IMG/VR virus record: IMGVR_UViG_3300028767_000022
Span: 1-61,450 of that record
Length of the DNA: 61,450 bases
Direction: 5' to 3' (one strand)
From: a virus
Taxonomy: Duplodnaviria; Caudoviricetes
A model generated the notes under the pieces. That model saw nothing but the letters and a program-made list of their open reading frames with translations. It was not told where the DNA came from and did no database searches. Shown in pieces: positions 31,601-50,040 of this stretch (positions within the stretch are counted from its first letter, which is position 1; every line of letters starts with the position of its first letter). The translations under genes and the position numbers were made by a program.

Positions 31601-34116
31601 AGGATATAGCTAAGATTGAGCCATCTGACGAATATAAGAAGCTATTGAGATCGGTGGCTAATGAGGCATTAACAAATCCTCAGGCCATGATAGACTTCGA
31701 TAGAAGAACTACATATGTAGATTCTAATGGATATAGACAATTATACTCTCATTGGACTAAGCTTATGCCTAAGGATGCTAGTATGATATTTAGTGAACCT
31801 AATTCTTTGTGGTCTGAAATGGATCCTCAGTCTGAATATATCAATAAGAACTTTGATATAGATGAGTCGGAAGAAGGAATGGTTCCAAGAAGAGACAAGT
31901 ATGACAATTCTCATGCATATAATAGAATGCGTAACAACCCTTCTAAAAGAGATTTCCATGATAAATTGATATCCGCATACGAAAAGGCTAATTCTAACTA
32001 TGACTATATACAAAGACCGTCTAAATACAGACTGGCGCAGATTCCTGGAAAGTTCTTCGAAAGAGTAACTAAAGGAGATAGATTCTTGTCTGGACTTATA
32101 GAAGCATTGAAGGATCAGGTTAGATGGAGACCATATGACTATATAGATGGAGATTACGACACTAAAGGAAACTATGGAGTTGACGGAAGTAAGGTAAGGT
32201 TTGTTCCTACTAAATATAGACAGATGCTTGATGATAGGGATTCAATATCTAGAGATTTACTTGGAGCTTTCGAAGAATATTATAAAGCTGCGGTTAACTT
32301 TAGTGAAATGTCTAAGCATGCAGACGACATAGAGACTATGTTGAGTGCTATTAAGAGACTGTCAGTAAAGGATAGTAAAAATAAAGAGATAAAAGGACCT
32401 GGTCAAAGCAATATATATAATAGAGCTCAGAACTTTGTCTCGAATACTGTTTATGGAGATCAAATGGCTAACCAATATGGAATGAAAGTTCTTAAAGGTA
32501 CTAGGTCTATATCAATGGCTAAACCAGTAAGAGGGTTTGTGAACTATGTAAGGAAGCTTGTATTGTCAATGAACGTCCCTTCTATTGTTGGTAACTTTAC
32601 CGCTTCAGCTGTGAATTTAAAAACAGAGGCTGTATGTGGAATATGGTTGAATAATGGTGGATTAAACAAAGGAATGAGGGAACTAGCATTAGCACTTCCT
32701 AGTTTGGTCACTTCCGATTTGCATTCTTATTCTAACAATAAGCTAATAACGTTCATGAGAGCTCTTGAGGTAACTAAATCTCAGCACAGGGATATGCAGA
32801 ATTTGCATGGACTATCGTTTACAAAGAACTTATTATCCAACTTCCATTACGGACCATATACTGCTGGTGACTTGGCTGTAAAAGGACCTATGATGGTAGG
32901 AGTATTAAGTAACTTTAAAATGTTTGAAGATAAATTCTATTCTAGAGAGCAATTCATAAAAGAAAGGTTCCCAGGAAAGAGATCTGAAGGAGAATTAGTA
33001 TTTGATGCTATGGACAATAATATGTACGATGCATTTGAAGTAAAGGATGGCAATTTGAAGATTAAACAAGCCTATGCGGGAGCCATGGACGAAAGAACAT
33101 GGAATTATGCAGCAAATGTAATTCATAGTTTAGGAAGTAAGTTAGACGGAACATTAACTCATGCAGATAAGAGTGCTTTGCACGCAGATGCATTTGGATC
33201 GGCATTTACCTTAAATAAAGGCTGGATGCAGGTTGCAATTAGACAGAGACTATCTTCTAAAAAATGGAATTATAGACTAAAGCAAATGACTGCTGGTAAT
33301 CTTAGAAATCCAAAAACTTCAACTAAGATCTTAATGAGCTTTTTAGCCGAAAAATTAGGAGAGCTTGGAAAATTTAAATTGCTTCATTTAACTAAAATGA
33401 ATGGAATGCAAGACAGTTTTGAGCCAAATGAATTGTATAACTTTAGAAAAACCTTGACTGACGTATTAATGTTGATTGCAGTATCTGCGGCCACACTATT
33501 TGCTGGAACAATGACTGGCGGTTCGGATGACGACAAAAAAAGGTCTTGGGCTATGTTCCTGTATGTAATGATTATGAGAACGAACATGGAGCTTGGATCT
33601 ACATTATCTGCGGTTGACGCAATAGGCCTGATTCAGAATACCACTACCGTTCAAGGTCCAATCACGGAACTAAAGGAAATATCAGATGGTATATTTGACG
33701 GAACATTGTTTACTCAGGACGTGCAATCTGGTAGATATATGTATATTCCTAAATGGAAGAAATCACTTATTAAACTTACTCCAGGATATAGAAACTATTT
33801 CCAGAATTTTGTTAAGCCAGATTTAAAAGCAAATGCTTATTTTATGAGTAAAAATATGTCGGGTATCTACGATTTAACTCAAGGCGTATGGAATCTTATA
33901 GATCCTGTCAAGAGCAATAAAAATGAGATAAAAGACTTAGAATATCAGAAATTCGAGAACAAAAAAATGATAGACAAGAGTGAAAATACTTATAAACCAC
34001 TTGGATATAAAGAAACTGAGCAAGATAAGAGAGATACTAGAATCAACAAAAGGAAAAAAGCAATGAAGTCTCGCGGAATCAATATGAAGATAAAACATTT
34101 GAAGAAAGAGGAATAA
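25654..34116 (+). CDS. Giant virion cargo / polyvalent protein with two zincin-like motifs
   Basis: 2820-aa ORF after vRNAP; HEVAH (27892-27906), HEMFGH (28960-28977), WCT motif (26962-26970), C-terminal hydrophobic helices. Confidence 0.75.
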   Translation: MNCVNINSKDFKGLLKETGLPSLLLETRVAQYQDENGIDSWPSADDVRSSRLTHTDKVRKEINSKLPSEVANSINIVDKVPNEILGRDDLYLSIKGLLEDKGITDPLLINWVGINKDVIGNIKTIRDSEHLQELVQSSYDKKSNKSNYEEFKTNKVASDSFDEWVEALEKYPLVFRDIILSHATKYITKVDRESKYVLSLSKVALTNTYGTLVNKPHEANRLGKIYDEEALKSTSDAVDHEPSASGNGYWVHVPMTPSDSEMEFESYSDLKKAIVGLEAKVNRIEELKSAPPKFYKQEPSLTGEAVNEYGFNDYSYVRVESTYSRSGNGYESELGRGYEGYYIHGYNTDKRKNLDTKILAISKEQAEKIWSDELARYPNSKYDAHDSNEILNLPVFILELNNLKRYLANTSEESWSKRNDIFNENVSLLKKLSPSTWCTSGSMTKHYVRNYDNYLLIVNGVTVVGIEASDETNENGKINVNEVTSRNNNGIASIDHLDDTLAFFEKHNLDPDNSTIKSAQNKKDLGKNDKDVSRDNDYDENDFWGDQEFNMDHDHNYEPDYDPEQEMYDYAKSNIDNFILENHINNAREFLNANPSRVIFEGLVYYAPEYLQTNDEVQAYVGATIEPHNIIYAGVGTDYRDNIVRYILNNYPKMYEYLGAEEKLNPEYKDLYDSFLERQEAAIEAERVRVANLTPEEREMENVINRNLPFSKTNNNSIQGYYDPKTDKVIVVAENTPVNESSKVAIHEVAHRGMIRMARELGGTEELHTALISSKKQLMEKLPDLLKRTGHNTLDELMTDYGFNPESKEGELKLLMELSARWSETLIDKPKPSWWKKLLGSIKNWLKKFANITLSESQVDELVGGFVKYGSKENVESIKDSQTINGVAVSKSIDAIYQRNLNKIQTGVDSLNKEYENKPIFQKDYLRLSKEYNDIDGKNSVSRIEIYKVYNPSAEYGNPSDVYVRFKAKDWANREAYDAAEKEYKDSKNAPFTEDAKIQMTTGKPEQLNLEFPAKLAESQKWTKNRMSRSTVNAIGSIANKIKNRFGIDFQIVSMEEGIRLYNLNTSTNKQIKRGDLLLGFYDPQKNTAYLIGSRLNRNTTVHEMFGHPFLEIIKATPELKYIYNQLALETVRHYKELAEINSIYKQFADAERLDESIIHALEGKISEKTTPPGLRSAIHDFWKAITDFFKKLFSKRDFVEEIRPDATLERLADWLLYGEDQLSLVGGKQRTMMESEINQVLDKLDPKRLGEFTQRKITLNEAVKFNNDVTGELAREAMVNDGVYDMEYIRANVLSKLTNVNFGTKSIEYASGNQMATFEYNDMGNSILITDISIKDKSSRVDIPFIVLSIVNSLDRTNHNEVLLRIDKDTKAYEALTQVIKEDAISWKSVDGDNYLVFSQDNNRIANMAALGRKSRLRKAAASIVIPGATSKETSMPTSDETMLSNAETLMHDIKVGLNVRLKTLERNKNIDANTKDEISRLVKSLENNNVATNAVNFIKFASIDVSKSAERLENMFNAMKNGEDISNSDVNYIEKYFLPLYEKTMTSIHEIYQAKDYGIFKGLSAHVINDLIHRVSEVNKTVDDMNRIVNIIIDKNSTKLFSDIADDAESPTMKDVLMRSREVSSDLPALGVFFGSMDDKKSEHLRALDKLVVDVQTQVTKIVATDGTLSDLANSFTHLKGINPTTTYKEFMEHVDGKATGYATSDLLRGQFNKDLANFRKELAKKYGLVGEYTTPTDLAEYKKYIEELDDWKSEHAERMFMPEYYEAKKVLSSEAAEALHEAKENLASFGLAFKNEEGFLDTRLMTPAELNAYHELRRLKNNLTSIVYLNGEEKMPGGLDRQIANEISEFYKKINKGIDYQTRNELFDKTYKEVLKNMSAEDADLWWKQNTKISFEQKFWDQLTSMEKNPQIPVYDDLYEKRKAILNLYRNQDTGEVPAQLLESIRNTKGETLAETVKKLDLAMTNARLQYPPKPGLGFKDIAKIEPSDEYKKLLRSVANEALTNPQAMIDFDRRTTYVDSNGYRQLYSHWTKLMPKDASMIFSEPNSLWSEMDPQSEYINKNFDIDESEEGMVPRRDKYDNSHAYNRMRNNPSKRDFHDKLISAYEKANSNYDYIQRPSKYRLAQIPGKFFERVTKGDRFLSGLIEALKDQVRWRPYDYIDGDYDTKGNYGVDGSKVRFVPTKYRQMLDDRDSISRDLLGAFEEYYKAAVNFSEMSKHADDIETMLSAIKRLSVKDSKNKEIKGPGQSNIYNRAQNFVSNTVYGDQMANQYGMKVLKGTRSISMAKPVRGFVNYVRKLVLSMNVPSIVGNFTASAVNLKTEAVCGIWLNNGGLNKGMRELALALPSLVTSDLHSYSNNKLITFMRALEVTKSQHRDMQNLHGLSFTKNLLSNFHYGPYTAGDLAVKGPMMVGVLSNFKMFEDKFYSREQFIKERFPGKRSEGELVFDAMDNNMYDAFEVKDGNLKIKQAYAGAMDERTWNYAANVIHSLGSKLDGTLTHADKSALHADAFGSAFTLNKGWMQVAIRQRLSSKKWNYRLKQMTAGNLRNPKTSTKILMSFLAEKLGELGKFKLLHLTKMNGMQDSFEPNELYNFRKTLTDVLMLIAVSAATLFAGTMTGGSDDDKKRSWAMFLYVMIMRTNMELGSTLSAVDAIGLIQNTTTVQGPITELKEISDGIFDGTLFTQDVQSGRYMYIPKWKKSLIKLTPGYRNYFQNFVKPDLKANAYFMSKNMSGIYDLTQGVWNLIDPVKSNKNEIKDLEYQKFENKKMIDKSENTYKPLGYKETEQDKRDTRINKRKKAMKSRGINMKIKHLKKEE

Positions 34117-39155: not shown

Positions 39156-40136
39156 TTAATTAATCATTTCTTCAAGGACAGTTAATGCTTTCACATATCC
39201 TATTTTCTTGACTAAATCACTAATGTCCTTTGTTTTGTGTTTCTTATTTATAAAGATCGCATGGAAATTATATTCAGAGCATAACTGCCTTGCAAATTTC
39301 ATTCCTGTTTTATCTCTATCATAAAAAACTAATATTCTTGTGAATCTTGATTTTAAATTGTCTATAACCGCTTTTGGTATGATAGTGCTTTCGCTCGAAG
39401 GAGCAACTGCATTATATCCCAATTCTTTTAGCACCATAATGTCTTTTAAAGACTTAGTAATAATTAATAAGTCTCCAGATTCGGGCAATTGCTCAAATCC
39501 AAATATGTCTAGTGCGCTAAGATTTCCTCTCCACTTGTTTAGCTTCGTTTCATACGGTTTGTAAATTTTAAACTTGTTAAATACTTTATAGCAATACATT
39601 GGGTTATCGTTTTCATATTTGGATTTTACCAAATTGTCAACTAGGTATTTTTGTATAGGGTCTACCTTGTATAATTTCAATGTATCTGCTGTTATACAGA
39701 ACTGTTCCCAGAACTCCTTATCTACTTGCGTAAATGGCTTTCTGACTACAGCTATGTGTTTTTCCTTTGCTTGATAAGTTCTCTTCTTATCTGTCATATT
39801 ATCCGATAAGGACTCTATTGACATATCGTCAAAGACTATCTTTAAGGTCTCACTGTATGTTGATAAGTTTTTGTATTTTTTTACAAAATTAAAAACGTCT
39901 CCACAATCACCACTGGCCATATCTTTGTAAAGTAAGGCCCCGGTCTTGTTGCTAACAAATATTCCAAAAGACGGATTTTTATCGTCTCTTAGAGGACTGT
40001 TATATATATGACCAATCTTGAAATTACCGATATATTTAGCGAAAATGGCATATTCTGTCGTCTTCGATAAGATATCGGTTTTTTCGATTCTGTTTGTTTT
40101 TGGATTAAGTATGACGTTTGTGTTCATACTATTCAA
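39156..40136 (-). CDS. dnaG: DNA primase (TOPRIM)
   Basis: SPLRDDKNPSF, GDCGD, IITKSLKD, FYDRD.TG, KDISD. Confidence 0.88.
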   Translation of the reverse strand: MNSMNTNVILNPKTNRIEKTDILSKTTEYAIFAKYIGNFKIGHIYNSPLRDDKNPSFGIFVSNKTGALLYKDMASGDCGDVFNFVKKYKNLSTYSETLKIVFDDMSIESLSDNMTDKKRTYQAKEKHIAVVRKPFTQVDKEFWEQFCITADTLKLYKVDPIQKYLVDNLVKSKYENDNPMYCYKVFNKFKIYKPYETKLNKWRGNLSALDIFGFEQLPESGDLLIITKSLKDIMVLKELGYNAVAPSSESTIIPKAVIDNLKSRFTRILVFYDRDKTGMKFARQLCSEYNFHAIFINKKHKTKDISDLVKKIGYVKALTVLEEMIN

Positions 40137-40139
40137 TTA

Positions 40140-40742
40140 TTAGAACGGCAAATCGTTATTGGCGACTGTCGGTGTTGCTGTAAATACTTCTGCTGAAGAT
40201 TTTTCTGCATTTTCTTTATCACCTAATACAGGTCTTTCGAATAAATCAATTGCCAACTTCGCGATTTTACTCTTTTCTGTTGGTATTTCCATTGATTCAA
40301 TAAACGTATATACAGAGTATTTAGGTAATGAGGTATAACCATTCTGTCCATAGACAATTTTTAATCTAACTAATTTGGTTTTGTCAACCGCATTCATTAA
40401 ATCAGTTACCCATTTAAAGAAGGCTTCAAATGAATCGTATGAGAAATTACTCAACTGATCCTTTGTATACCATACACTCATTATCTGCAATATTCTTGCG
40501 GCTTGTTTATTTGCTTTTTCAGCAAACTCAGCATCGGTCTGGTCGTTGAATTTTGTAGGGATATATTCGGTCTGTGTTAAAGCAGCGCCATCCTTTACAA
40601 ATTTGAACTCAATGAATAGATTACCGTTTGTTGATTTTTCATTTCTTACTCCAGCGAATTCTACATTCTCATGTATACCAGCGCCCAGAAATGAAACGTC
40701 TTTCGATTTTAAATCAAAAGCGTTATTTGTATTAAATATCAT
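40140..40742 (-). CDS. Single-stranded DNA-binding protein (putative)
   Basis: C-terminal NDLPF tail; lies between AAA ATPase and primase. Confidence 0.7.
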   Translation of the reverse strand: MIFNTNNAFDLKSKDVSFLGAGIHENVEFAGVRNEKSTNGNLFIEFKFVKDGAALTQTEYIPTKFNDQTDAEFAEKANKQAARILQIMSVWYTKDQLSNFSYDSFEAFFKWVTDLMNAVDKTKLVRLKIVYGQNGYTSLPKYSVYTFIESMEIPTEKSKIAKLAIDLFERPVLGDKENAEKSSAEVFTATPTVANNDLPF

Positions 40743-40755
40743 AATTTATATCTTT

Positions 40756-41505
40756 TTAATCGTTACTTGGCAAAAACACTTTATCCCAATAGGTAGTTAT
40801 CTCATTTTCCGTGTTGGAATCTGCGATTACTATTTTCTGTCCTCTTAAGTGTGGCGCTCTTGCTTCTCTAACTGAATTTACTCCTCCTTCAAACGAAATT
40901 AAAGTCTCGTTTGTTTTTCTGTATACATATCCGACTGCGTCTGCTTCTCCGCAAACTATGTCTCCAAGTTTTCCCACTAAATCTATTTGCATTTCTGACA
41001 ATTCTTGTCCGTCTTTCGTTATTAGCGTATCTTTCGTATGCCCAATCAAAATAAAATGATCGGTCAAATTTCTGAATTCGTCTATTATCGTCTTAACGGC
41101 TTCTCTTAAGTAAAGATAACCTGCACCTTTTTCTAATGTTCTCACATCAGTTCCAGTCCAGTTCTTCGCTATAGGATTTTGTTTGTATAAACTAGCGGCA
41201 TATGGCAAGCACATGTCTTCTAATCTGGTAGCATTGTCTATTGCTATATATTTATATGGTTTAGTTCCTGTTTCCACAATTTTTGCTTTGATTGCCTTCA
41301 CAATTTCGCCCAAATCTGCGACGCTTCTAGCCTGAACGGCCATTGCTTCTAGAAATTCCGATCCTCCCTCTAAATCTACGATTAAGCAGTTATCTAGGGT
41401 TGACAATAATGTTGTTTTTCCAGTTTTTGGCTTTCCAAACAAAATTAAGAATCGCGGGTTTAATACTTTAGGTATACTTTTTATTGTAGGTAATTGTATG
41501 CTCAT
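40756..41505 (-). CDS. AAA_24 / Sak4-like NTP-binding recombination protein
   Basis: GKPKTGKTT, VDLEGG, IAIDN, ILIGH motifs; adjacent to SSB. Confidence 0.8.
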   Translation of the reverse strand: MSIQLPTIKSIPKVLNPRFLILFGKPKTGKTTLLSTLDNCLIVDLEGGSEFLEAMAVQARSVADLGEIVKAIKAKIVETGTKPYKYIAIDNATRLEDMCLPYAASLYKQNPIAKNWTGTDVRTLEKGAGYLYLREAVKTIIDEFRNLTDHFILIGHTKDTLITKDGQELSEMQIDLVGKLGDIVCGEADAVGYVYRKTNETLISFEGGVNSVREARAPHLRGQKIVIADSNTENEITTYWDKVFLPSND

Positions 41506-41541
41506 GTGTTATTTGTTTAAATAACACGAAGATATATTTTT

Positions 41542-41565
41542 TCTGATAAAATTTGAAATTATTTG
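41542..41565. promoter_or_regulatory. Repeated 24-bp intergenic motif, copy 1
   Basis: TCTGATAAAATTTGAAATTATTTG; 21/24 identical to 43757-43780. Confidence 0.55.
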
Positions 41566-41600
41566 ATATTGTCTGAAACCTTCATGTCATAATATTACTA

Positions 41601-42182
41601 TTAGAACGCTGATTTAATCGTAACTACGATAGTTTTAATTGTTTCCAATTGATAACTAGTGTATCTACTGAACGTTTCAGGTTTTGCATAGCGTGGAATA
41701 ATCGTGTATCCAACTTTAATGAAATTATCGTAAATTTCAACTAAATTACCGGCTACATACACATAGTTTGCTGGCATGTTGCTTTTGAAACAACTGCAGC
41801 CACTTGAGTATGTTCTGATATATGGATTGTATGATTGTTTTGGCTTGCGAGCTTCAGCGAATGCTTCCAGCTTGTCCATTACTGTGTTCCACTCATTTTT
41901 GAGATCGTGCACAGGAACGTTACCTTGCAGGAAGTTATTGTTTTTAACCCAATTGACGTCGAATGATTTTGAGGTGCCAAACGTAATAGTGTGGCCCGGT
42001 TTTGCATAGTTGATTCCTTTAATCTCTACACCACCTGTGGTATAAAACGGAGCATCCAATCCAGCAACTGTTAATTGTGGATATTTTTCGATCAATTTAT
42101 TGACCAATGCTTGTTTGTAAATAAGATAAGGATCTACGTTTGCTTTCGGAATTGTTACCGCAAAAGATTTATTATATGTCAT
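41601..42182 (-). CDS. Hypothetical protein
   Basis: 193-aa ORF tightly packed after DnaB. Confidence 0.75.
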   Translation of the reverse strand: MTYNKSFAVTIPKANVDPYLIYKQALVNKLIEKYPQLTVAGLDAPFYTTGGVEIKGINYAKPGHTITFGTSKSFDVNWVKNNNFLQGNVPVHDLKNEWNTVMDKLEAFAEARKPKQSYNPYIRTYSSGCSCFKSNMPANYVYVAGNLVEIYDNFIKVGYTIIPRYAKPETFSRYTSYQLETIKTIVVTIKSAF

Positions 42183-42187
42183 GGTTT

Positions 42188-43177
42188 TTATTTTTTAAAT
42201 TCGAGTTGTTGTTGTGATTGTTGGGCTTTTTCCGAATCCTCATCCGGTTCTTTCAAATTGTTAAATTTAAGGTCATTGATAAATTTCAATATTCTTAAAT
42301 CTCCCTCTCTGTTTTTGAGAAAATGTAGATATACGCAATCCTTGACGGGGAGATTGTAAATGCCATACGACATCAAACCGAGTAGTTCAGGCCTGTGTAT
42401 TACAATTACGTAGTCGCTACCTTGGAAAACTGCATCACTAGACGATAAATCGCTTCGTTGAGGATAATGCATTCCCGAGTTGTTCAGCCTTTCGGGCCGT
42501 TCTATTTCTCTATTCATTTGAGAAATTTGTATTATAGAAGTCTTGCCAACTTTCTTTACTTCTATTAATGATTTTTCTAAATCCACTATTATCGCTCTTT
42601 CCGATTCTCCAGAAGACCCACGTATTAATAGTGTATGGTCTATTGTTACTACTAGCCATTTGTTTTTAGCTATAGTTGATTGGAAAAATTTGATTGTGTT
42701 TTCTATTTCCTGCACACTACCCGCAGAGTCCACATAATATATTGGATACTGGGTTATTTGCTGTGCTACCTTTTCAACGCCTGTGAAGTCTTCTTCGGTT
42801 ATTAGGCCTTTGTCTGAGGCGGAATATAATTCTGACGTTGTTTTCTTTAATTTATATGATATCTTTCTACCAACTTGGCGAGAGCTTAACATTTCAAAGG
42901 AAAATGATAGCATTACTACATCTTCTAGTGGATTTAAATCTATTAAATCAGTTTCAAGGGTATTTACAAAGGAAGATTTACCGGAGCCTGATATGCCCGC
43001 TACTGCGTAGATTGCATTTGGCTCGATTCCTCCCATTGCTAGTCGATTAAATTTAGACCATCTCGTTCTTAGTGATCTGACCTTATTCTCTCTTCTATCC
43101 TTTATGTACTTTACAATTTCATTGGTTGCAGAAGAGATATGTCTATAGTTCAGAACTTTAGTCGATTTCTGTTCCAT
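42188..43177 (-). CDS. dnaB: Replicative helicase, DnaB-like C-terminal domain only
   Basis: AGISGSGKS, FSFEM, TIDH, ISQMNR, P.RSDL, LKNREG. Confidence 0.9.
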   Translation of the reverse strand: MEQKSTKVLNYRHISSATNEIVKYIKDRRENKVRSLRTRWSKFNRLAMGGIEPNAIYAVAGISGSGKSSFVNTLETDLIDLNPLEDVVMLSFSFEMLSSRQVGRKISYKLKKTTSELYSASDKGLITEEDFTGVEKVAQQITQYPIYYVDSAGSVQEIENTIKFFQSTIAKNKWLVVTIDHTLLIRGSSGESERAIIVDLEKSLIEVKKVGKTSIIQISQMNREIERPERLNNSGMHYPQRSDLSSSDAVFQGSDYVIVIHRPELLGLMSYGIYNLPVKDCVYLHFLKNREGDLRILKFINDLKFNNLKEPDEDSEKAQQSQQQLEFKK

Positions 43178-43724
43178 ATATTTTCTCTGCTGTATGTTGG
43201 ACTTTTTTGTCCTTTAGAAACTCGTCATATAATAGCCACTCTTCTGCAAGTAGCCATTTAGACATTCGTTTCATATATCCCATCGACCCACTTGATTTTC
43301 GAGTTGTTAATTCGAATTTCAAACAGTCTAAAATGTGTTCGTGTTTTGTTTTACTTTTCCCCACGATCTTTTCGTAGGCTTTTCTGCATCTACTTACATC
43401 TCCTCTCAGATAGTCTTTCATTCCATCTGGTCTGCTTGTCGATATTGGATATGATTCGTAGAACTCGTCAAAGAAGTTCCTGGTTTTGAACTTATTCTCG
43501 AATTCCTCGGTTATCTTTAGACTCGATATGTCCATTTCGTTGTATACCGATTCTTTTGTTAGTATATTTTTGTCTATTAGATTTAAAATGTCTGAATCAA
43601 CTATATTTATTGTGTTTTGGTATGCACTAAAATTGATTTTTTCTACTATAAATTTAATAAGCATAAACTGATTTGTCGTTATTTTGAGGCGTTTGGCCTC
43701 GTCCAAATCTAGTTCTATCAGCAT
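43158..43724 (-). CDS. Putative replication initiator / helicase-associated protein
   Basis: FDEFYESYP and MSKWL...W motifs typical of phage initiator C-termini; overlaps the dnaB start. Confidence 0.55.
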   Translation of the reverse strand: MLIELDLDEAKRLKITTNQFMLIKFIVEKINFSAYQNTINIVDSDILNLIDKNILTKESVYNEMDISSLKITEEFENKFKTRNFFDEFYESYPISTSRPDGMKDYLRGDVSRCRKAYEKIVGKSKTKHEHILDCLKFELTTRKSSGSMGYMKRMSKWLLAEEWLLYDEFLKDKKVQHTAEKIYGTEID

Positions 43725-43756
43725 TTTCTTTTTACTTTAAAGTTTAAATTGATTGC

Positions 43757-43780
43757 TCTGATAAAATCTGATATGATTTG
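43757..43780. promoter_or_regulatory. Repeated 24-bp intergenic motif, copy 2
   Basis: TCTGATAAAATCTGATATGATTTG, 33 bp upstream of the initiator/dnaB genes. Confidence 0.55.
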
Positions 43781-43782
43781 TA

Positions 43783-44241
43783 TTATGCTGCCATTAGAAG
43801 CTCTTCTTCTGGCGGTGATTTGCTTAATAAAACATTATCAAATGCTTTCTGCATATCTGGTGAGATCCTACCTCCATAGTTATACATAAATGTGATAATG
43901 TTGTTTATATGCTCTGGTGTTAACGTAGCAACTAGTCTCGTTTTAGGAGTTTCTAATAATACTTCGTTTTCGTCATACATTGACGTCCAGTATAAACATT
44001 CTTCCGGTGGTAGGCCTTGATCAATTAAGATAGTAGCTTCTTCGGTAACCCATTTTTCAAGCGAGTCTTCGATTAGTCCTAAGTTAATTAATAATTGGCC
44101 AATTCGCTGATCTGGATTTTCCTTCCAGGACTTGCGAATAAACTCCGTATCAATTTCTAATACTGGAATTTTCCATTTTTTCTGTAATTCAGACCAATTT
44201 ACTTTTGCAAGAAAATCGTCTATTCTTTCTTTTGGTCTCAT
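43783..44241 (-). CDS. Hypothetical phage protein (RPxxRID...PDQRIGQL type)
   Basis: 152-aa ORF, A-rich leader, ends in LMAA. Confidence 0.75.
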   Translation of the reverse strand: MRPKERIDDFLAKVNWSELQKKWKIPVLEIDTEFIRKSWKENPDQRIGQLLINLGLIEDSLEKWVTEEATILIDQGLPPEECLYWTSMYDENEVLLETPKTRLVATLTPEHINNIITFMYNYGGRISPDMQKAFDNVLLSKSPPEEELLMAA

Positions 44242-44402
44242 AATTGTTAATTTTAATGAGGACTAGCGGTAGTCTTGGTAATTTTTGTCGGACCCATAGG
44301 CTGACCGTCTTTACCGCTAGTTTTTTGTTAAAGCGAGGGGATTGAACCACTCCTACTAATCTTTCTGTCACTGATTAATATTCTCCATTACTTCCTTTTT
44401 GT

Positions 44403-44831
44403 TTAATTTCCAAATTCAACTGAATTGTTGAAGTTTTCAAGTTGTTTTTCAATTGCCAGAATCATTACATCGATTTCCTGTACTTCGTTTGTCACAAATA
44501 CTGGAGATAAAATAACATTTTTACCTTTGGTTGGCATCATGTTAAGTTTGATTTTTTGTTCTTTTAATTGTTGCAGTGCGTAGATTGAAGGATAAATGCA
44601 TGTTGCAGGTACTTGACTCATTTCGGTGAATCCCATATTTGCGGCCTGTATTTCTACTTTTACGTCTACTAACTTTTTTGAATCACTAATGATTGCTTTG
44701 TACAATCCTTGGATATCGTAATTACGCGGCCCTGAGTCTGCTACGTTTTCAATGCGAATGCGATCCCAATTCTTTTTGATATTGGCAATTAATAATTCGC
44801 GTTCTGTAATAAGTGTTTTTGCTGTTTTCAT
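44403..44831 (-). CDS. Helical hypothetical protein
   Basis: 142-aa ORF with AAAAATCAATTTTATAACA-ATG leader. Confidence 0.75.
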   Translation of the reverse strand: MKTAKTLITERELLIANIKKNWDRIRIENVADSGPRNYDIQGLYKAIISDSKKLVDVKVEIQAANMGFTEMSQVPATCIYPSIYALQQLKEQKIKLNMMPTKGKNVILSPVFVTNEVQEIDVMILAIEKQLENFNNSVEFGN

Positions 44832-44932
44832 TGTTATAAAATTGATTTTTAATTGTTTGACTTTATGATAACTATTCAGCCTGGTACTTCTACCCCGTCA
44901 GTTCAATATCGGAATCACTTCCCTTATTGTAT

Positions 44933-44966
44933 CAAAAGAGGGCTTGCGTTTGACTTCAAGCCCTCT
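44933..44966 (-). terminator. Intrinsic terminator-like hairpin
   Basis: 10-bp stem AGAGGGCTTG/CAAGCCCTCT followed by a short U tract on the - strand. Confidence 0.5.
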
Positions 44967-45086
44967 CTGTATGTGTATTTAAATTTAAGAAACAAATCGG
45001 CATCCTTATGTAATTCGGAGTTACCCTACATAAAGAATATTCGTTTTCCGGAGTTACCCAACTTATATTTGTTTAATGTGTTCTTA

Positions 45087-45611
45087 TCATCCTTCGACCA
45101 CTCCAACAACTGTGTTGCGGTTATTCAAGAATGAAGCAAGTAAATCGGTGTTTAAATTTCCACCTCCCATAAATATTTGCATATTTTTTGGCATTGCTCT
45201 CTGCTCGATTACACGAATGTTCTCAACAACTTCTCTGTTACGAGATTTTGTATTTTGAAAGTTCGGTTGTGATTCTGTAAGGTGAGCCATATACAAGCTA
45301 GTTACAACTTGTTTGCGGTCATTAGTAGATACCAATGCGCCTATGGCTTCGCCACAAAGCCACTGAACGTAAGGTATTTCTCCTTTAGTTTTATGTGCGA
45401 GTAGTTTTGCAATAATAATATGCGAACATGATAGGAAGTCTATTTGATTCCCCGAACGTACAAACCAATCAATGAATGGTCCATACTTATTGAATACAAC
45501 TGTTCCGTCGTTTTTGATTTTGAATGCAGAACTATTTTCTAAGTAGATCTGAATCAATTCAGCAAAACGGTTTTTGTCGAATTCGTCAAAGATTAATTCT
45601 TCCGTATTCAT
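45087..45611 (-). CDS. Hypothetical protein with strong SD
   Basis: GAAAGGAGGCCGCC-ATG; 174 aa. Confidence 0.8.
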   Translation of the reverse strand: MNTEELIFDEFDKNRFAELIQIYLENSSAFKIKNDGTVVFNKYGPFIDWFVRSGNQIDFLSCSHIIIAKLLAHKTKGEIPYVQWLCGEAIGALVSTNDRKQVVTSLYMAHLTESQPNFQNTKSRNREVVENIRVIEQRAMPKNMQIFMGGGNLNTDLLASFLNNRNTVVGVVEG

Positions 45612-45634
45612 GGCGGCCTCCTTTCTGACTGAGA

Positions 45635-46108
45635 TTACTCTCCGTCAAAAGCTTCCACCGACCGGTCGTTTGCTGCGACGATATCCAAAATGGCATCTTT
45701 CTGCGCGGTCAAATCAGCGATAATCGCGTCAATGCGGGCAACTTCACTCAAGTTTAGTGCTTTTGTGATTTCGGTTGGAGTTGCAGCATTTCCGAAGAAA
45801 GTACGCTTCTTTTCCAAGTCGTAGCCAGTTGGTAACTCTTCAGCCTTCATAACCAGTTTTTCTGCCAAGCCGACTGATAATTCTGCCTGACCACCGTTAA
45901 TCACCACAACATCAATATTGCCGGACATTTGTTTATGCGCTACAGTATTAACTTTAATGTGTTTGATCGTGAAGCTATTAACCGGGATTTTAATCCGGAC
46001 TGCTTCGTCTTTTTTTGAGTCTTCCCGGTCTACAGGAACGACTTCGATTACGTGAAGGTGACCGCCAAGGGTGCTTCCGTAAAGTTTTAATGCTTCTTTA
46101 ATTTTCAT
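45635..46108 (-). CDS. Hypothetical protein with strong SD
   Basis: TAAGGAGGAAAAA-ATG; 157 aa; first gene downstream of the 2-kb non-coding region. Confidence 0.85.
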   Translation of the reverse strand: MKIKEALKLYGSTLGGHLHVIEVVPVDREDSKKDEAVRIKIPVNSFTIKHIKVNTVAHKQMSGNIDVVVINGGQAELSVGLAEKLVMKAEELPTGYDLEKKRTFFGNAATPTEITKALNLSEVARIDAIIADLTAQKDAILDIVAANDRSVEAFDGE

Positions 46109-46139
46109 TTTTTCCTCCTTATTTTTGATAATAAATTTA

Positions 46140-48180
46140 ATTTTTTGATAAACACTGGAATTTTTCCTACTTGGTTGGAATGTCCTGCCTAAGCATACTT
46201 AACTCGATCCAACTATACATTTTAAAGAATTCTTCGGATAAGATTTGAAATAATTAATCCTACGTTTTCACACGCTACTCCGGTTTCCAATCTTGTACTA
46301 GGGAGTTGTTAGGATTTTCTGAAAGAAAAACGACTAATTTACGATTAATCTATGGGTTTTGCGCCCACTGCAGTTATTAGTTCGAAATGGTGCCCGTGAA
46401 GGCTATTTAGAGGCGTTTTAAGACACTTTTAGGTACTCTCTGGCAGATTGTTCCCGCAGTTACGCAAGGTCTCTTAAATCGACTTAAAATATGGTTTGTG
46501 GTCATGTTGGGATTTGATCCCCTTCATGATATCCGGGTTTGAAATATTCAGCTTCTTGAACTATTTCTAAAATTTAATTGGAGTTATCCGCCCAATGAAT
46601 GGTATATGCTGCATATTGGCATGTGCATCAAATTAAATTTTATGTAACTAATCTGTGTTTGGTAGACTATATATTTTCTTGTAGTGAAGAAAATAGTAAA
46701 GAACATATGATTTTTTTGTTGCGATCCTCGTATTAGTTCCTATTAATTCATGTCAACGTAATGAGGTTGATTGTCTAAAAATGGTGTTCTAAAGATCCGT
46801 ATTGTGACAGTCCTCGAAAACTGTGCAACTCTGTTATAGTCTGAAATTGTTTGAAAGCGCATTTTCTCCTATCTAGTGACTACATATTATGTTCTCATAA
46901 GCAGGGGACCAACTTTTTCAAATTGGTAGAAAGCTCCAATTCTACCCAGTCGGCTTTGTGTACCCGGTTGGAATGGGCCTGTTCTGAGCCTTTTATCGTG
47001 GACTAAATCTACAACCAGTAACGCTATGTACTGGGTTTCTAGCCGTCAGAGGGGGAGTTACTAATCCTGTTTAGTTGTACAGGAATTCACCACCTTAATT
47101 TATATGGTTTTTGAGTGTTTGACCAATCCACTTTAATTTACAGTTATCTTCTGTCGTATTTAGCACTTAATTTGCCGCTACAGCGTTCTGCGTGACTGGC
47201 AGGCACTGACTTTCATGACCGTTGTTTGCCATGAATATACGAATTTGATCTTAATGTGGCGATATCGATCTAATGATATGAATTGCCCCACATCCGGGTG
47301 TAACGATATAATTCGGCCAATCGTCCTAAAAGCAATTTAATTTTTGCATAGATATTTCCGTATCTCGCCGGGTTCTTGGCAGCTACTACCTTTTGTAACG
47401 ATCCCTGCACTCTGCCAACCGAGTAAATCGAAGTGTTTTCTTTTGTGACCGATTTCACACATAACGGTCTGCATTGTTGCTGCTTTCACGAGTCAAATTG
47501 GCTCGGAGAGTCGCTAACTCTCAATGGATATCGCTGCTAATTAACTATCGGACTTTCACCCCATACATTACTAGCTGGTTTATATATTACATTGATAGTT
47601 AATTTTTTGTAACTTAGTGCTGCTTTTATTGCTGCGACAATAAATATTGCGGTTACTGAATTTACATACTTTGATCTTTCTCCATTTTTATCTGTTACGT
47701 ATCTGTAATGTTATTCTGTAAATTCTACCCATATTCCCTTAGGGCGTGGTCGACTGTTGTCAGAGGCAATCTCTCGACGGTTCTTTTTCTAGGCTACCGC
47801 TTTCCATAGGCACGCTAATGCGTTTGTTCCCCCCTCTATCTTTCAAGGGATCCGCGTGTTTTTAGGCTTTCGCCTTAGTTATCCATTTGGGTTCCAAAGC
47901 CCAAGCCGTCAACTCTACTTCTCTATATCGAACAGAAGCTTAAACCCTACGGAGCGTTTCTTTTAGGCGCTCACCCATAATCACTATTTCGCGTTTCTCC
48001 ATTTAAGGATCGAGGTGTTAGTGAACGTCTTCCCTCCAATTATTTAGTTCATCGTGTCTAATAGGCAGGTTTATCTTAGTCCGTTGTCGTTCTACTGCAC
48101 ACAACACCCTGTTGCACGCCTCAATCTTACGTATTCAGTCCTAACTTAGACTTTAATTGTTAATATTTTATTTAATAATC
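46140..48180 (-). ncRNA. Candidate large (~2 kb) structured non-coding RNA or RNA cluster
   Basis: No credible ORF over ~2.1 kb; many nested stems, GNRA and GUGAAA loops on the - strand, end-to-end complementarity. Confidence 0.6.
46405..46490. repeat. 86-bp helically phased quasi-palindromic element, copy in the non-coding region
   Basis: ATTTAGAGGCGTTTTAAGACACTTT...CTCTTAAATCGACTTAAAAT; see 24232-24317. Confidence 0.5.
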
Positions 48181-48206
48181 TCTGAAAATGCATGCTATCG
48201 GTTTAT

Positions 48207-48629
48207 TTAAATTGGCACATGCCCGACACCAATTTCCTCACTTATAAAGATTTCTGCAAGATTTCTTATTTCGAGAGGAACGTTATCTGCAGATACAATA
48301 TCTCCAGACGACAGGTCTAAGTAATCTGTGTCTATGTCAGCCATAGCGAGATCTACATATCCAGCCTTTAAATCCGATTCCGAGAAATAATCAATAGGCA
48401 AATGCCTTGTTTGATCATATCCGGGTAGTCCTTTCACAATACGTGAAATAATATCCCTTAACATTAGAATTTCAAATTCGATTTCCTGTGTGCTTTTCTT
48501 TAGACTCAGAGTTATGTATGGGTCTTTGACCAATGTTACATTTATTATCTCCGCTATTTGCACTTTAGCCTTTATTAGACTCTTAACTTTTGCTGATATT
48601 GCAATTGCTTTGCTTAATTTGTTATGCAT
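48207..48629 (-). CDS. Hypothetical protein
   Basis: 140-aa ORF in operon-like packing. Confidence 0.7.
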   Translation of the reverse strand: MHNKLSKAIAISAKVKSLIKAKVQIAEIINVTLVKDPYITLSLKKSTQEIEFEILMLRDIISRIVKGLPGYDQTRHLPIDYFSESDLKAGYVDLAMADIDTDYLDLSSGDIVSADNVPLEIRNLAEIFISEEIGVGHVPI

Positions 48630-48640
48630 AATGTCTTTTG

Positions 48641-49066
48641 TTAAATTGGGTTTACTTCAAATTTCGGATAGACGATTTGACGTACCGTTAAGTACACTTG
48701 ACGCGTAGGTATTGGTTTCATTTCGATCCATCTAAAGAAAGTTCTGGGTACTCCTGCATTTATTTTTGCGAAATGCGTCGCTGTTGTTTTTGTATTGTCA
48801 ATGTTCGTTATCACAACTTCTTGTAACATCGGACCTTGATATGCAAAATTGTTTGCATTAGGAGAAAGTTCGGTTATCTTATCATTAAGAAAATTTGCAT
48901 CTTCTTTTATGACTCCAACAATTGGCTTCAGTGAAATTTCTTTCACCTCTGTTATTGCATTCCAATCTGTCTCACTCATTGTTTTAGTGGTTTGAGATAT
49001 CTGCATTCCATATGCAAATCCTAAAACAAATATCATTATTGGTATAATGAATCGTTTCATAATCAA
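48641..49066 (-). CDS. Hypothetical protein with N-terminal membrane anchor/signal
   Basis: KRFIIPIMIFVLGFAYG; ATGA overlap with the upstream gene. Confidence 0.7.
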   Translation of the reverse strand: MIMKRFIIPIMIFVLGFAYGMQISQTTKTMSETDWNAITEVKEISLKPIVGVIKEDANFLNDKITELSPNANNFAYQGPMLQEVVITNIDNTKTTATHFAKINAGVPRTFFRWIEMKPIPTRQVYLTVRQIVYPKFEVNPI

Positions 49067-50040
49067 ATCACTGGATAACCTTTTTCCACATACGGCTTTC
49101 TTTCAAGGATTTTAGCACGTTTTGTAGGCGAACACATGTTCAAAATCGAGGTCAGGTGTTTCATTAATTTGTCTTCCTCTATTTTCTTCCCAACGGGAAT
49201 TCCAAGAATGGACTTAATAATGTCAACATTTCTGTCTATCTCGGCGTAAGCCTTAACATCTGACGGACCTTTTTCAAGGATCATGTCAATTGACATTCTT
49301 GTTGATTCATATTTTCCTGTAGCAACAGTATCCATAGCTTCTTCCAATGCGTTGTGCAGCAGAATGGCGATATCAATATCACTCCAAGTCGGTAAATGTT
49401 TTTGTACCTGATAAAAAGCCTTGATAGGGCCTTCATCGATTAAGTTCTCACGTAAACGTCCATACCATAACGGTAGGTTTTTGTGCACTCCCTTTAAGAG
49501 TTTAGACACTTTGATCCATGCCACGCCATCGGGATCTGTTGAGTTGGTTAACTTACGGAATAAGTCCACTGCAACCGGAATTTGAGCGACGAAATCCTTT
49601 TTGAGAATCTCGTTTAATTGCTCCACCATTGTTGATTCATCAGTAATTTCCGGGCTTGGATTAGCCGGCTTTTCTTCTGGTGCTTCTTCAACGACTTCTG
49701 CTACTTCAAAGTCCATTTCAGTTTGTCCTGGCATCAATGCTTTTGAGGCATCAAAGTTAGGCAATAAAACTTTAATCTCTGCCAAGGTAAACATGTTCAA
49801 ATCAATGCGTATGGTTGGCATTACTGTCTCCATATCATTCATAAGAATACTGTCTAACATGATATCAATTACATCAATTCTTTTACGAATCGATAACGCT
49901 TTTGTTGCTTGTCCAGAATGAACACATTCATATAATTTATCCTTCAACACTACCCGAAGCCCTAATAGCTCAGTTGGTGTCATCGTTGGGGTACTGGGTA
50001 CCCCTGCGGCCGCTGTCTTATTTGACGGCTCATTTTTCAT
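49063..50040 (-). CDS. Hypothetical protein with strong SD
   Basis: AAAAGGAGGTCAAA-ATG; 325 aa. Confidence 0.8.
   Translation of the reverse strand: MKNEPSNKTAAAGVPSTPTMTPTELLGLRVVLKDKLYECVHSGQATKALSIRKRIDVIDIMLDSILMNDMETVMPTIRIDLNMFTLAEIKVLLPNFDASKALMPGQTEMDFEVAEVVEEAPEEKPANPSPEITDESTMVEQLNEILKKDFVAQIPVAVDLFRKLTNSTDPDGVAWIKVSKLLKGVHKNLPLWYGRLRENLIDEGPIKAFYQVQKHLPTWSDIDIAILLHNALEEAMDTVATGKYESTRMSIDMILEKGPSDVKAYAEIDRNVDIIKSILGIPVGKKIEEDKLMKHLTSILNMCSPTKRAKILERKPYVEKGYPVI

Follow-up and report, generated by a model that had tools for sequence, protein, structure and literature searches.

Phages encode small stable RNAs that bind a phage or host protein, among them phi29 pRNA and the 6S-like RNAs, as well as larger RNAs such as GOLLD and ROOL, which are ~800 nucleotides (nt) and ~580 nt long. 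GOLLD and ROOL are ornate RNAs associated with phages and prophages (see also bioRxiv 10.1101/2024.12.08.627333). Here, we describe a 2098-nt stretch without open reading frames (ORFs), referred to below as the gap, in the IMG/VR virus record IMGVR_UViG_3300028767_000022, whose whole 61,450-nt length is called the window. A first-pass annotation, made from the letters of the window, had offered the gap as a candidate very large structured RNA, with an RNA cluster or a giant leader of the downstream gene as its other options. We present evidence that the gap encodes no protein, that it is syntenic with a similar stretch in crAss-like phages of the human gut, and that parts of it are conserved at the nucleotide level above the neighbouring genes. 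We judge the chances about even that the gap is a conserved non-coding transcription unit yielding one or more RNAs with local structured modules.

Like GOLLD and ROOL, the gap is a long non-coding phage locus with no protein product, with GNRA-type loops and hairpins, and with tRNA genes in the same region of the genome. Unlike them, it has no match in Rfam even at expectation (E) values of up to 10, is two to four times longer, and lies ~4 kb away from the tRNAs rather than adjacent to them; furthermore, the gap is mostly non-conserved among close relatives, whereas the fold of GOLLD and ROOL is conserved over its full length. The gap also resembles a 2.1-2.5 kb stretch in gut phages of the Suoliviridae, the delta crAss-like phages cr1_1, cr50_1, cr10_1, cr115_1, cr4_1 and cr6_1, with which stretch it shares position, orientation, a similar length, a purine-rich sense strand (A 35-36%), and small conserved structured modules within a fast-evolving body; the best module of the gut stretch lies near its 5' end, whereas that of the window's clade lies near the 3' end. 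As with phi29 pRNA and the 6S-like RNAs, the product that we propose is a discrete RNA, and an RNA library contains a ~170-nt piece that bears conserved hairpins, but the locus is ten times longer than these RNAs and matches no Rfam family, the comparison with them being by Rfam search only. We know of no partner protein for an RNA from the gap.

In the human gut, crAss-like phages rank with the most abundant viruses, yet their gene expression programme is poorly known. In passages of Yutin et al. (2021, PMC7886860), the Suoliviridae are the largest crAss-like group in the human gut, crAss-like phages account in one survey for 86.7% of the reads that map to putative virus genomes, and regions without recognisable proteins are noted in the same phage order, mainly in the Zeta group. 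Unlike the present report, that passage offers no RNA reading of these regions, and the words 'non-coding', 'noncoding', 'ncRNA' and 'intergenic' are absent from the main text of PMC7886860. Passages of PMC7886860, PMC8375218, PMC12386605, PMC9226505 and PMC8040213 contain no description of the gap, and no published description was found in the openly accessible literature, supplementary files, which might list it, being outside its scope. New in this report are the placing of the window among the crAss-like phages and the synteny of its gap with that of the gut Suoliviridae. The gap amounts to 2 kb, or ~2% of a ~97 kb genome; it encodes no protein, keeps one position from peat to the human gut, and contains blocks that are conserved far more strongly than the neighbouring genes. 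Together these features imply a function that is missing from current annotations. If its product is an RNA, it would be a new and unusually long member of the small set of large phage non-coding RNAs; if it acts as DNA, it would pinpoint a control region or origin for a group in which, to our knowledge, none is known.

The window is a linear record with an estimated completeness of 63%. Its DnaB-like helicase (42188-43177) retrieved 30 IMG/VR loci, including a large group at 58-59% identity whose DNA is 98.5-98.7% identical to the RefSeq genomes 'CrAssphage cr1_1' and 'cr55_1'; RefSeq classifies cr1_1 in Crassvirales, Suoliviridae. By these helicase relatives the window is an environmental crAss-like phage related to the Suoliviridae. 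At least 19 sequencing runs that carry the label peat metagenome contain DNA near-identical to the window, and five of them may be its own source; three DNA runs contained near-identical pieces with no useful variants within the gap. The locus itself is as follows.

46109-48206, minus strand: ORF-free gap, 2098 nt, between a gene of 140 amino acids (aa; 48207-48629) and a Shine-Dalgarno-led 157-aa gene, p157 (45635-46108)

The gap is non-coding for protein, as the first-pass annotation had stated. Its longest ORF under genetic code table 11 is 62 aa (47270-47458, minus strand). Stop codons are spread over all six frames, with 37-52 per frame in ~699 codons, and the longest stop-free run is 71 codons, compared with a mean of 96.9 in 200 shuffles, 94% of which reach 71. 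When the gap was compared with the gaps of relatives in six frames by tblastn, with stops read as X, matches did not exceed 47 bits, were alike in the six frames, and were confined to places of DNA-level conservation with no frame preference, whereas the same test on the neighbouring genes gave 187-198 bits in the correct frame. Reassignment of single stop codons (TAG=Q, TGA=W, TAA=Q) opened no frame that fills the gap, and the flanking genes are intact under table 11 and need no recoding. The longest frames under recoding were 142 aa (opposite strand, four read-throughs), 84 aa and 138 aa; the 142-aa frame, with TAG read as Gln, spans 47757-48185 on the plus strand and has no other support. 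Hidden coding is ruled out by the stop density, the lack of a conserved frame and the lack of effect of recoding.

The gap belongs to no described RNA family. A search of 45900-48400 against Rfam 15 at E values of up to 10 returned three chance-level matches (E 0.92-8.5, 14-20 bits, against gathering scores of 50-56), so membership in any Rfam 15 family, including GOLLD, ROOL, OLE, HEARO, group I and II introns, 6S, tmRNA and RNase P, was rejected. Rfam searches of four relatives (L003, L008, L014 and L029) returned tRNAs only, and blastn of the gap against 50,697 phage records gave no match. No second copy of the gap sequence was found elsewhere in the window, and a diversity-generating template/variable-repeat pair is therefore excluded.

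The main new finding is that the gap is syntenic. In the closest relative, L003 (88% helicase identity, 93.9-kb contig), an ORF-free stretch of 1946 nt occupies the equivalent position, and a more distant relative, L044 (93.1-kb contig), has a gap of 1840 nt. The latter was found in metagenomes with the 19-nt core of a conserved block of the gap, block D (listed below); that scan returned eight loci, seven chance matches and one true. In IMG/VR, a block D pattern retrieved L003 again together with two contigs that match L044 exactly wherever they cover the gap, and so added no further diversity. The gene order sigma-p128-p325-(p141)-p140-gap-p157-p174 is common to the window, L003 and L044, and the flanking genes are orthologous. 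In IMG/VR look-ups with single flanking proteins, p157 retrieved only a contig cut inside the gene, and p140 and p325 retrieved none. For 22 of the helicase relatives, a full 10 kb of upstream sequence is available. A contiguous gap of at least 1.9 kb free of ORFs is present in 14 of these, and in a further three the gap is split by one ORF of at least 70 aa. In these three (L012, L021 and L030, of cr1 type) the ORF divides the gap into ~1055 and 1158 nt, and the DNA is 97-99% identical to that of unsplit gaps; the ORF probably arose by loss of a stop codon. In the remaining five of the 22 (L006, L007, L022, L025 and L026; 55-63% identity) the 10 kb upstream of the helicase contain no long stretch without ORFs, so that the gap is not universal among relatives or is located elsewhere in these five.

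The same arrangement is found in all six RefSeq Suoliviridae genomes examined, in which an unannotated stretch of 2080-2514 nt follows the sigma factor, one or two small genes, a ~470-aa gene and a ~130-aa gene, and precedes a ~180-aa gene. These genomes represent four subfamilies.

Boorivirinae: cr1_1, cr50_1 and cr10_1 (a 61-aa coding sequence is annotated within the gap of cr10_1)
Uncouvirinae: cr115_1
Loutivirinae: cr4_1
Bearivirinae: cr6_1

Where IMG/VR loci carry the gut motif described below and both flanking ORFs, the gap measures 1948-2483 nt in 38 of 39. Homologues of p157 adjoin the gap downstream in every relative examined; p157 and the 179-aa protein that follows the gut gap share 30% identity over 64 aa at the same N-terminal position (E 3e-5), a similarity that is weak but specific and by which the two genes appear to be homologous. 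In the window as in the gut phages, a co-oriented stretch of 1.8-2.5 kb without ORFs separates the sigma-factor module from the p157/179-aa gene family. By these comparisons the gap is conserved in position, orientation and length to a depth at which the flanking proteins are barely recognisable.

Segments of the gap are conserved at the nucleotide level above the neighbouring genes. Between the window and L003, the last ~800 nt of the gap are 66% identical, on a level with the flanking genes (58-62%); in the 5' part two short blocks (A1 and A2) are kept, a further block (B) is kept in the middle, and the remainder is unalignable. The flanking proteins of the window and L044 are only 27-33% identical (sigma factor, 60%), and none of the flanking DNA aligns by blastn, whereas a 4.2-kb query that included the flanking genes matched L044 in two gap segments, of 172 nt at 72% and 96 nt at 69%. 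An nhmmer profile built from the window and L003 and run against all loci matched L003 only. The conserved blocks, from the 5' end of the gap, are as follows.

48138-48161, minus strand: block A1 (AACAATTAAAGTCTAAGTTAGGAC), kept in L003 and not in L044
48055-48075, minus strand: block A2 (GATAAACCTGCCTATTAGACA), a conserved 5' block, which includes the stretch that the first-pass annotation thought might close the domain
47102-47124, minus strand: block B (GGTCAAACACTCAAAAACCATAT), mid-gap, kept in L003 and partly in L044
46858-46883, minus strand: block C (GTAGTCACTAGATAGGAGAAAATGCG), the start of the conserved 3' domain
46332-46385, minus strand: block D, a 54-nt block with two hairpins (H15 and H16), near-invariant in all three genomes, whose 19-nt core retrieved L044
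46226-46250, minus strand: block E (TTTCAAATCTTATCCGAAGAATTCT), promoter-like, kept in L003
46109-46189, minus strand: leader of p157, which contains block E2 (46166-46189) and, ahead of the ATG at 46108, AAGGAGG

Block A1 contains the word AACAATTAA, which also stands 15-18 nt before two start codons, and A1 may mark the start of a transcription unit. Block A2 could pair with A1 (GTCTAA/TTAGAC and TAGG/CCTA) around an insert of variable length, a pairing drawn by eye. The core of block C (GTCACTAnATAG) is common to all three genomes, the core of block D is identical in all three, and no other DNA of the neighbourhood is as strongly conserved as block D. This block has a single copy in the window, which rules it out as a repeated promoter. 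Close variants of block E are found 33-40 nt before the starts of genes 41505 and 43724; the shared motif, TTTCAAAT(C/T)TTATC(A/C)GA, stands at 41534-41558, 43757-43765 and 46226-46250, upstream of three replication-side genes, and is a candidate phage promoter element.

Within the 3' domain a few hairpins are conserved with compensatory changes. The helices compared among the window, L003 and L044 are listed below.

46723-46797, minus strand: helix H3-4 (GATCTTTAG ... CTAATACGAGGATC), 9 pairs, unbroken in all three genomes, 3 of them changed on both sides
46611-46624, minus strand: CCAAT-loop hairpin, which behaves like H11 and H16 in the three-genome comparison
46541-46567, minus strand: hairpin H11, 10 pairs, paired in all three genomes, 6 compensatory
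46404-46491, minus strand: H12, a long hairpin with imperfections, for which 21 pairs are predicted and 78% of their cells are paired, also visible as a weak self-inverted match
within block D, minus strand: hairpin H15, GUGGG-CGCAAAA-CCCAU, invariant
46332-46350, minus strand: hairpin H16 in block D, 7 pairs, all paired, 2 compensatory

A strict helix test required at least seven contiguous pairs, every cell paired in the three genomes, and at least two compensatory pairs. In the 3' domain it returned two helices on the sense strand (H11 and H16) and none on the antisense strand, and in four flanking coding alignments it returned none in eight tests, on either strand, over 4019 columns. Compensation restricted to the sense strand is thus observed in at least two hairpins. 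Consensus folds of two sequences gave z < -3 in 8 of 27 gap windows and in 1 of 51 windows of flanking genes. With three sequences, four gap windows fall below -3: three are adjacent (z -4.4, -10.4 and -4.1; ~46450-46720), and the remaining one is at the alignment's 5' edge. Window z averages -2.77 for the sense strand compared with -1.98 for the antisense strand, and four helices contain 18 G.U cells to 1 A.C cell, a count biased by the prediction of these helices on the sense strand; structure mildly favours the sense strand. The 11-base-pair (bp) stem at 46569-46579/46631-46641 has apparent counterparts of different sequence in L003 and L044, seen by eye only and absent from the minimum-energy folds of both. 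Structure conserved with covariation is found in a few hairpins of the 3' domain, in a comparison of three distinct sequences, and none was detected in the unalignable middle.

The gut gaps are homologous among themselves and share collinear conserved blocks. Their structured core lies 148-366 nt from the start of the gap (L008:1776-2066; in RefSeq cr1_1 the gap is 42136-44616). A pattern for this 5' core returned 78 IMG/VR loci, including two apparent chance matches; the gut set comprises L008 and 76 further loci (L048-L125 minus L049 and L103). In 16 dereplicated gut sequences a 7-bp helix shows changes on both sides at five of its seven positions, and it is followed by a five-pair hairpin, AUGGG/CCCAU; a loop, GAGAACCG..UGG, is invariant. 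No Rfam family matches the core at gathering score. A covariance model of the core, R1, finds the held-out genomes cr115_1 (E 3e-18, 104 bits) and cr50_1 (E 6e-13, 78 bits). In a six-sequence alignment, scored by raw consensus energy because the shuffles fold to zero and z is degenerate, a consensus structure at or below -3 kcal/mol was present in 4 of 39 windows of the gap and 0 of 52 windows of flanking genes; in nine dereplicated full gut gaps, structure was detected in the 5' third only. Both clades have a long, fast-evolving ORF-free body and a small, well-conserved structured module.

Separately, two parts of the L008 gap, 485-582 and ~2390-2470 (the latter at the 3' end, before the 179-aa gene), match the 3'-end leader of cr50_1 at 66-70% identity, the matched parts of the cr50 gap being 2415-2506 and 2427-2501. 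These matches may represent an internal copy of a promoter or leader.

One piece of the gap is present in an RNA library.

46533-46704, minus strand: single contig of metatranscriptome run X24 (wetland), 172 nt, depth 8.5, 1 mismatch

The contig contains the stems 46569-46579/46631-46641 and 46672-46680/46687-46695, the CCAAT-loop hairpin and H11, and it terminates 8 nt past H11. Over 40000-56000 the run gave no other cover, a lack from which we draw nothing. The presence of the contig in the library is a hint, and no proof, of transcription.

Under the transcription-unit reading, the gap would be transcribed in the direction of its neighbours, as a unit between the sigma-factor module and the module leading into the replication genes, and the 5' conserved blocks may mark the start of the transcript. 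The body of this RNA would evolve rapidly with few constrained modules, rather than forming one rigid 2-kb RNA; its 3' domain (~46330-46900) would carry H3-4, the CCAAT-loop hairpin and H11 in addition to the two-hairpin block D. The long primary transcript would most likely be ended or trimmed at hairpins to leave one or more stable small RNAs, for which the piece 46533-46704 is a candidate. Such small RNAs might act in trans by binding a factor, of phage or host origin, as expression switches to the replication genes. Among the options of the first-pass annotation, the RNA cluster, in the form of a modular RNA locus, fits these observations best. Block D (46332-46385), H11 (46541-46567) and the gut core model R1 offer precise targets.

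Several results count against this transcription-unit reading. The middle ~1 kb of the gap does not align even with L003, and the window's clade consists of three distinct sequences only (window, L003 and L044), which permits no powered covariation test. Single-sequence folding, which the first-pass annotation had put forward as a test, gave an ordinary result, with minimum-free-energy z of 150-nt windows on the minus strand averaging ~-0.36 over 27 gap windows (lowest -2.59), whereas windows of flanking genes reach -3.9, so that the gap is no better than they are. For the 172-nt piece folded by itself, z is -2.23, +0.49 and -0.97 in the window, L003 and L044, respectively. In the three-sequence comparison, z < -3 was reached in 4 of 30 gap windows compared with 1 of 32 and 8 of 41 windows in flanking genes, a gap no richer than its surroundings. 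RNAalifold predicted 122 pairs for the 3' domain; 87.7% of their cells are paired, and both sides have changed in 43 of the pairs, a count that exceeds those of shuffled partners (19.1) and slid partners (4-10) and is reached by 0 of 500 shuffles. The count of 43 is, however, largely circular, the structure having been derived from the same alignment. The same procedure on coding alignments yielded 4.5-4.9 both-sided pairs per 100 columns and 82-85% of cells paired, compared with 5.8 and 87.7% in the gap, and the whole-domain energy is alike on the two strands (-46.7 versus -47.3). The enrichment in perfect stems described below is uneven among relatives, the gap being denser than the outside in four of seven and the enrichment absent in three. 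The gut and window clades are not joined by sequence: blastn, nhmmer and the covariance model found no similarity between gut gaps and the window's clade, apart from two marginal blastn matches (E 0.003), and R1 found nothing in the window, L003 or L044 at E values of up to 10. Finally, the RNA evidence consists of one contig from a run selected with this gap's own words; the contig shows neither strand nor true ends, and an RNA library can hold DNA.

The reading preferred by the first-pass annotation, a single ~2-kb globally folded ornate RNA, larger than but analogous to GOLLD and ROOL and with its ends closed by long-range pairing, is in our estimate improbable and gains no support from our computations. 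A length of 1.8-2.5 kb is kept across the phage family, GC is raised in the gap, and GNRA-type loops are present. The seven complementarities that had been listed are all exact Watson-Crick matches (11/11, 9/9, 7/7, 11/11, 9/9, 8/8 and 7/7); among the listed positions, 47506-47522 forms a near-palindrome, and the minus strand reads AGGCGAAAGCCU at 47864-47875. Perfect stems of at least 9 bp (loop 3-60) begin at nine positions, representing four distinct stems, compared with an expected 0.62 +/- 0.95 from 200 dinucleotide shuffles, none of which reaches nine; there are 23 stems of at least 7 bp compared with 9.4 +/- 4.2, and 1% of shuffles reach 23. The gap is the stem-richest 2.1-kb window of the 61-kb record (9 versus a mean of 1.55). 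The hexamer GUGAAA, reported four times on the minus strand, is indeed present four times versus 0.99 expected (1% of 500 shuffles), a weak signal from a hexamer picked post hoc. Two of the perfect stems fall in the non-conserved middle.

47539-47604, minus strand: perfect 11-bp stem with GGGGUGAAAGUCC in its loop
47658-47725, minus strand: perfect 9-bp stem

The description of the gap as hairpin-dense holds for its perfect stems and not for its folding energies, and the many hairpins of a single sequence did not amount to a global fold that is conserved. The end-to-end complementarity is an exact 8 bp with both partners in blocks conserved in L003, but by eye the closing helix is down to 5 pairs in L003, and its blocks are not conserved in L044. 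An alignment by sequence may hide structure in the divergent middle; against a single large RNA stand the failure of that middle to align between the two closest genomes, the lack of a detected consensus structure there, the ordinary folding z-scores, the confinement of detected structure in the gut relatives to the 5' third, and the absence of an Rfam match. A cis-acting untranslated region, either a long leader of the p157 operon or a trailer of the sigma operon whose hairpins control read-through, stability or translation, would account for the orientation shared with both neighbours, for the highest conservation in the 800 nt adjoining the downstream gene, and for the constant presence of the same gene family downstream. 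A scan for sigma-70 promoters and terminators detected no terminator-like site within the gap on the minus strand, which is also consistent with such a region; the scan gave fewer sites than shuffles, Bacteroidota-type promoters being outside the scan. However, p157 has its own Shine-Dalgarno leader, resembling the leaders of other window genes, and the shared motif stands 118-142 nt upstream of its ATG, so that most of the gap is not needed as a leader. In addition, 2 kb is far above the usual length of bacterial and phage leaders, and the conserved core of the gut gap lies at the end far from the downstream gene. We consider a cis-acting region unlikely, and the giant leader of the first-pass annotation is weakened by the recurrence of the motif at 46226-46250 before two other genes.

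It is likewise rather improbable that the gap works at the level of DNA, as an origin of replication, a packaging site or a control region bound by proteins, with the blocks serving as duplex protein sites. The gap heads the replication gene block (helicase, and primase at 39156-40136), block D is invariant with a small palindrome (GATTAATC), and GC skew reverses locally over 46300-47050. Yet the palindrome is kept in neither L003 nor L044, the skew reversal does not persist, and neither the AT-rich unwinding region nor the iteron arrays of a phage replication origin was found: GC in the gap is 0.386 compared with 0.349 for the record, the 97th percentile of 2.1-kb windows, and its repeats are limited to four two-copy direct-repeat families of 12-17 nt and two inverted repeats. 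Moreover, pairing in H11 and H16 is kept through one-strand compensatory and G.U changes, which duplex sites do not need. An origin and decayed ORFs were among the outcomes that the first-pass annotation had named as refuting an RNA. A non-functional spacer, made of decayed genes or remnants of a lost mobile element, would fit the stop density and longest open runs, which resemble random sequence, the non-conserved middle, and the lack of such a gap within 10 kb in five of the 22 helicase relatives. Against it, a gap of similar length is kept with flanking proteins down to 27% identity and across four Suoliviridae subfamilies, no frame-specific similarity is left, phage genomes are tightly packed, and block D is better conserved than any neighbouring gene. 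Because of the synteny and block D, this reading is excluded in practice, and we rate it as highly improbable. A bolder version of the RNA reading is that the Suoliviridae and their environmental relatives all carry an undescribed non-coding RNA gene of ~2 kb at a fixed position, a new class of giant phage RNA serving as scaffold or decoy at the early-to-replication switch; we advance this speculatively and think it doubtful. It is just as tentatively that, under the new-class reading, we suppose the sequence to turn over rapidly while length, position and a few structured modules are kept, with the window's copy as the first environmental member.

Up to 34116 the genes of the window are read from the plus strand, and from 34211 onwards they are read from the minus strand. 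A search of nine neighbouring proteins against PHROGs and Pfam identified only the ECF-type sigma factor (50636-51232), and p157 gave a sub-threshold dUTPase match in Pfam (E 0.0027, 17.9 bits versus a cut-off of 22). The minus-strand gene starts at 46108, 45611 and 50040 have a strong AAGGAGG-type Shine-Dalgarno site. In the minus-strand block the majority of the other genes lack such a site and have A/T-rich leaders; an example is ...AACAATTAAAATCAATTT..., which precedes 54679 and 44831. On the plus strand there are two adjacent giant ORFs, 11368-25632 (4754 aa) and 25654-34116 (2820 aa). Very large virion-associated RNA polymerase proteins are carried by crAss-like phages.

In a search of the whole window against Rfam 15, only two tRNAs reach gathering score, at 52217-52291 and 56504-56601. 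The second lies in another ORF-poor stretch, 56312-56990 (679 nt, no ORF of at least 70 aa), and covers 98 nt compared with the 71 positions of the model; this tRNA may have a long variable arm or an insert.

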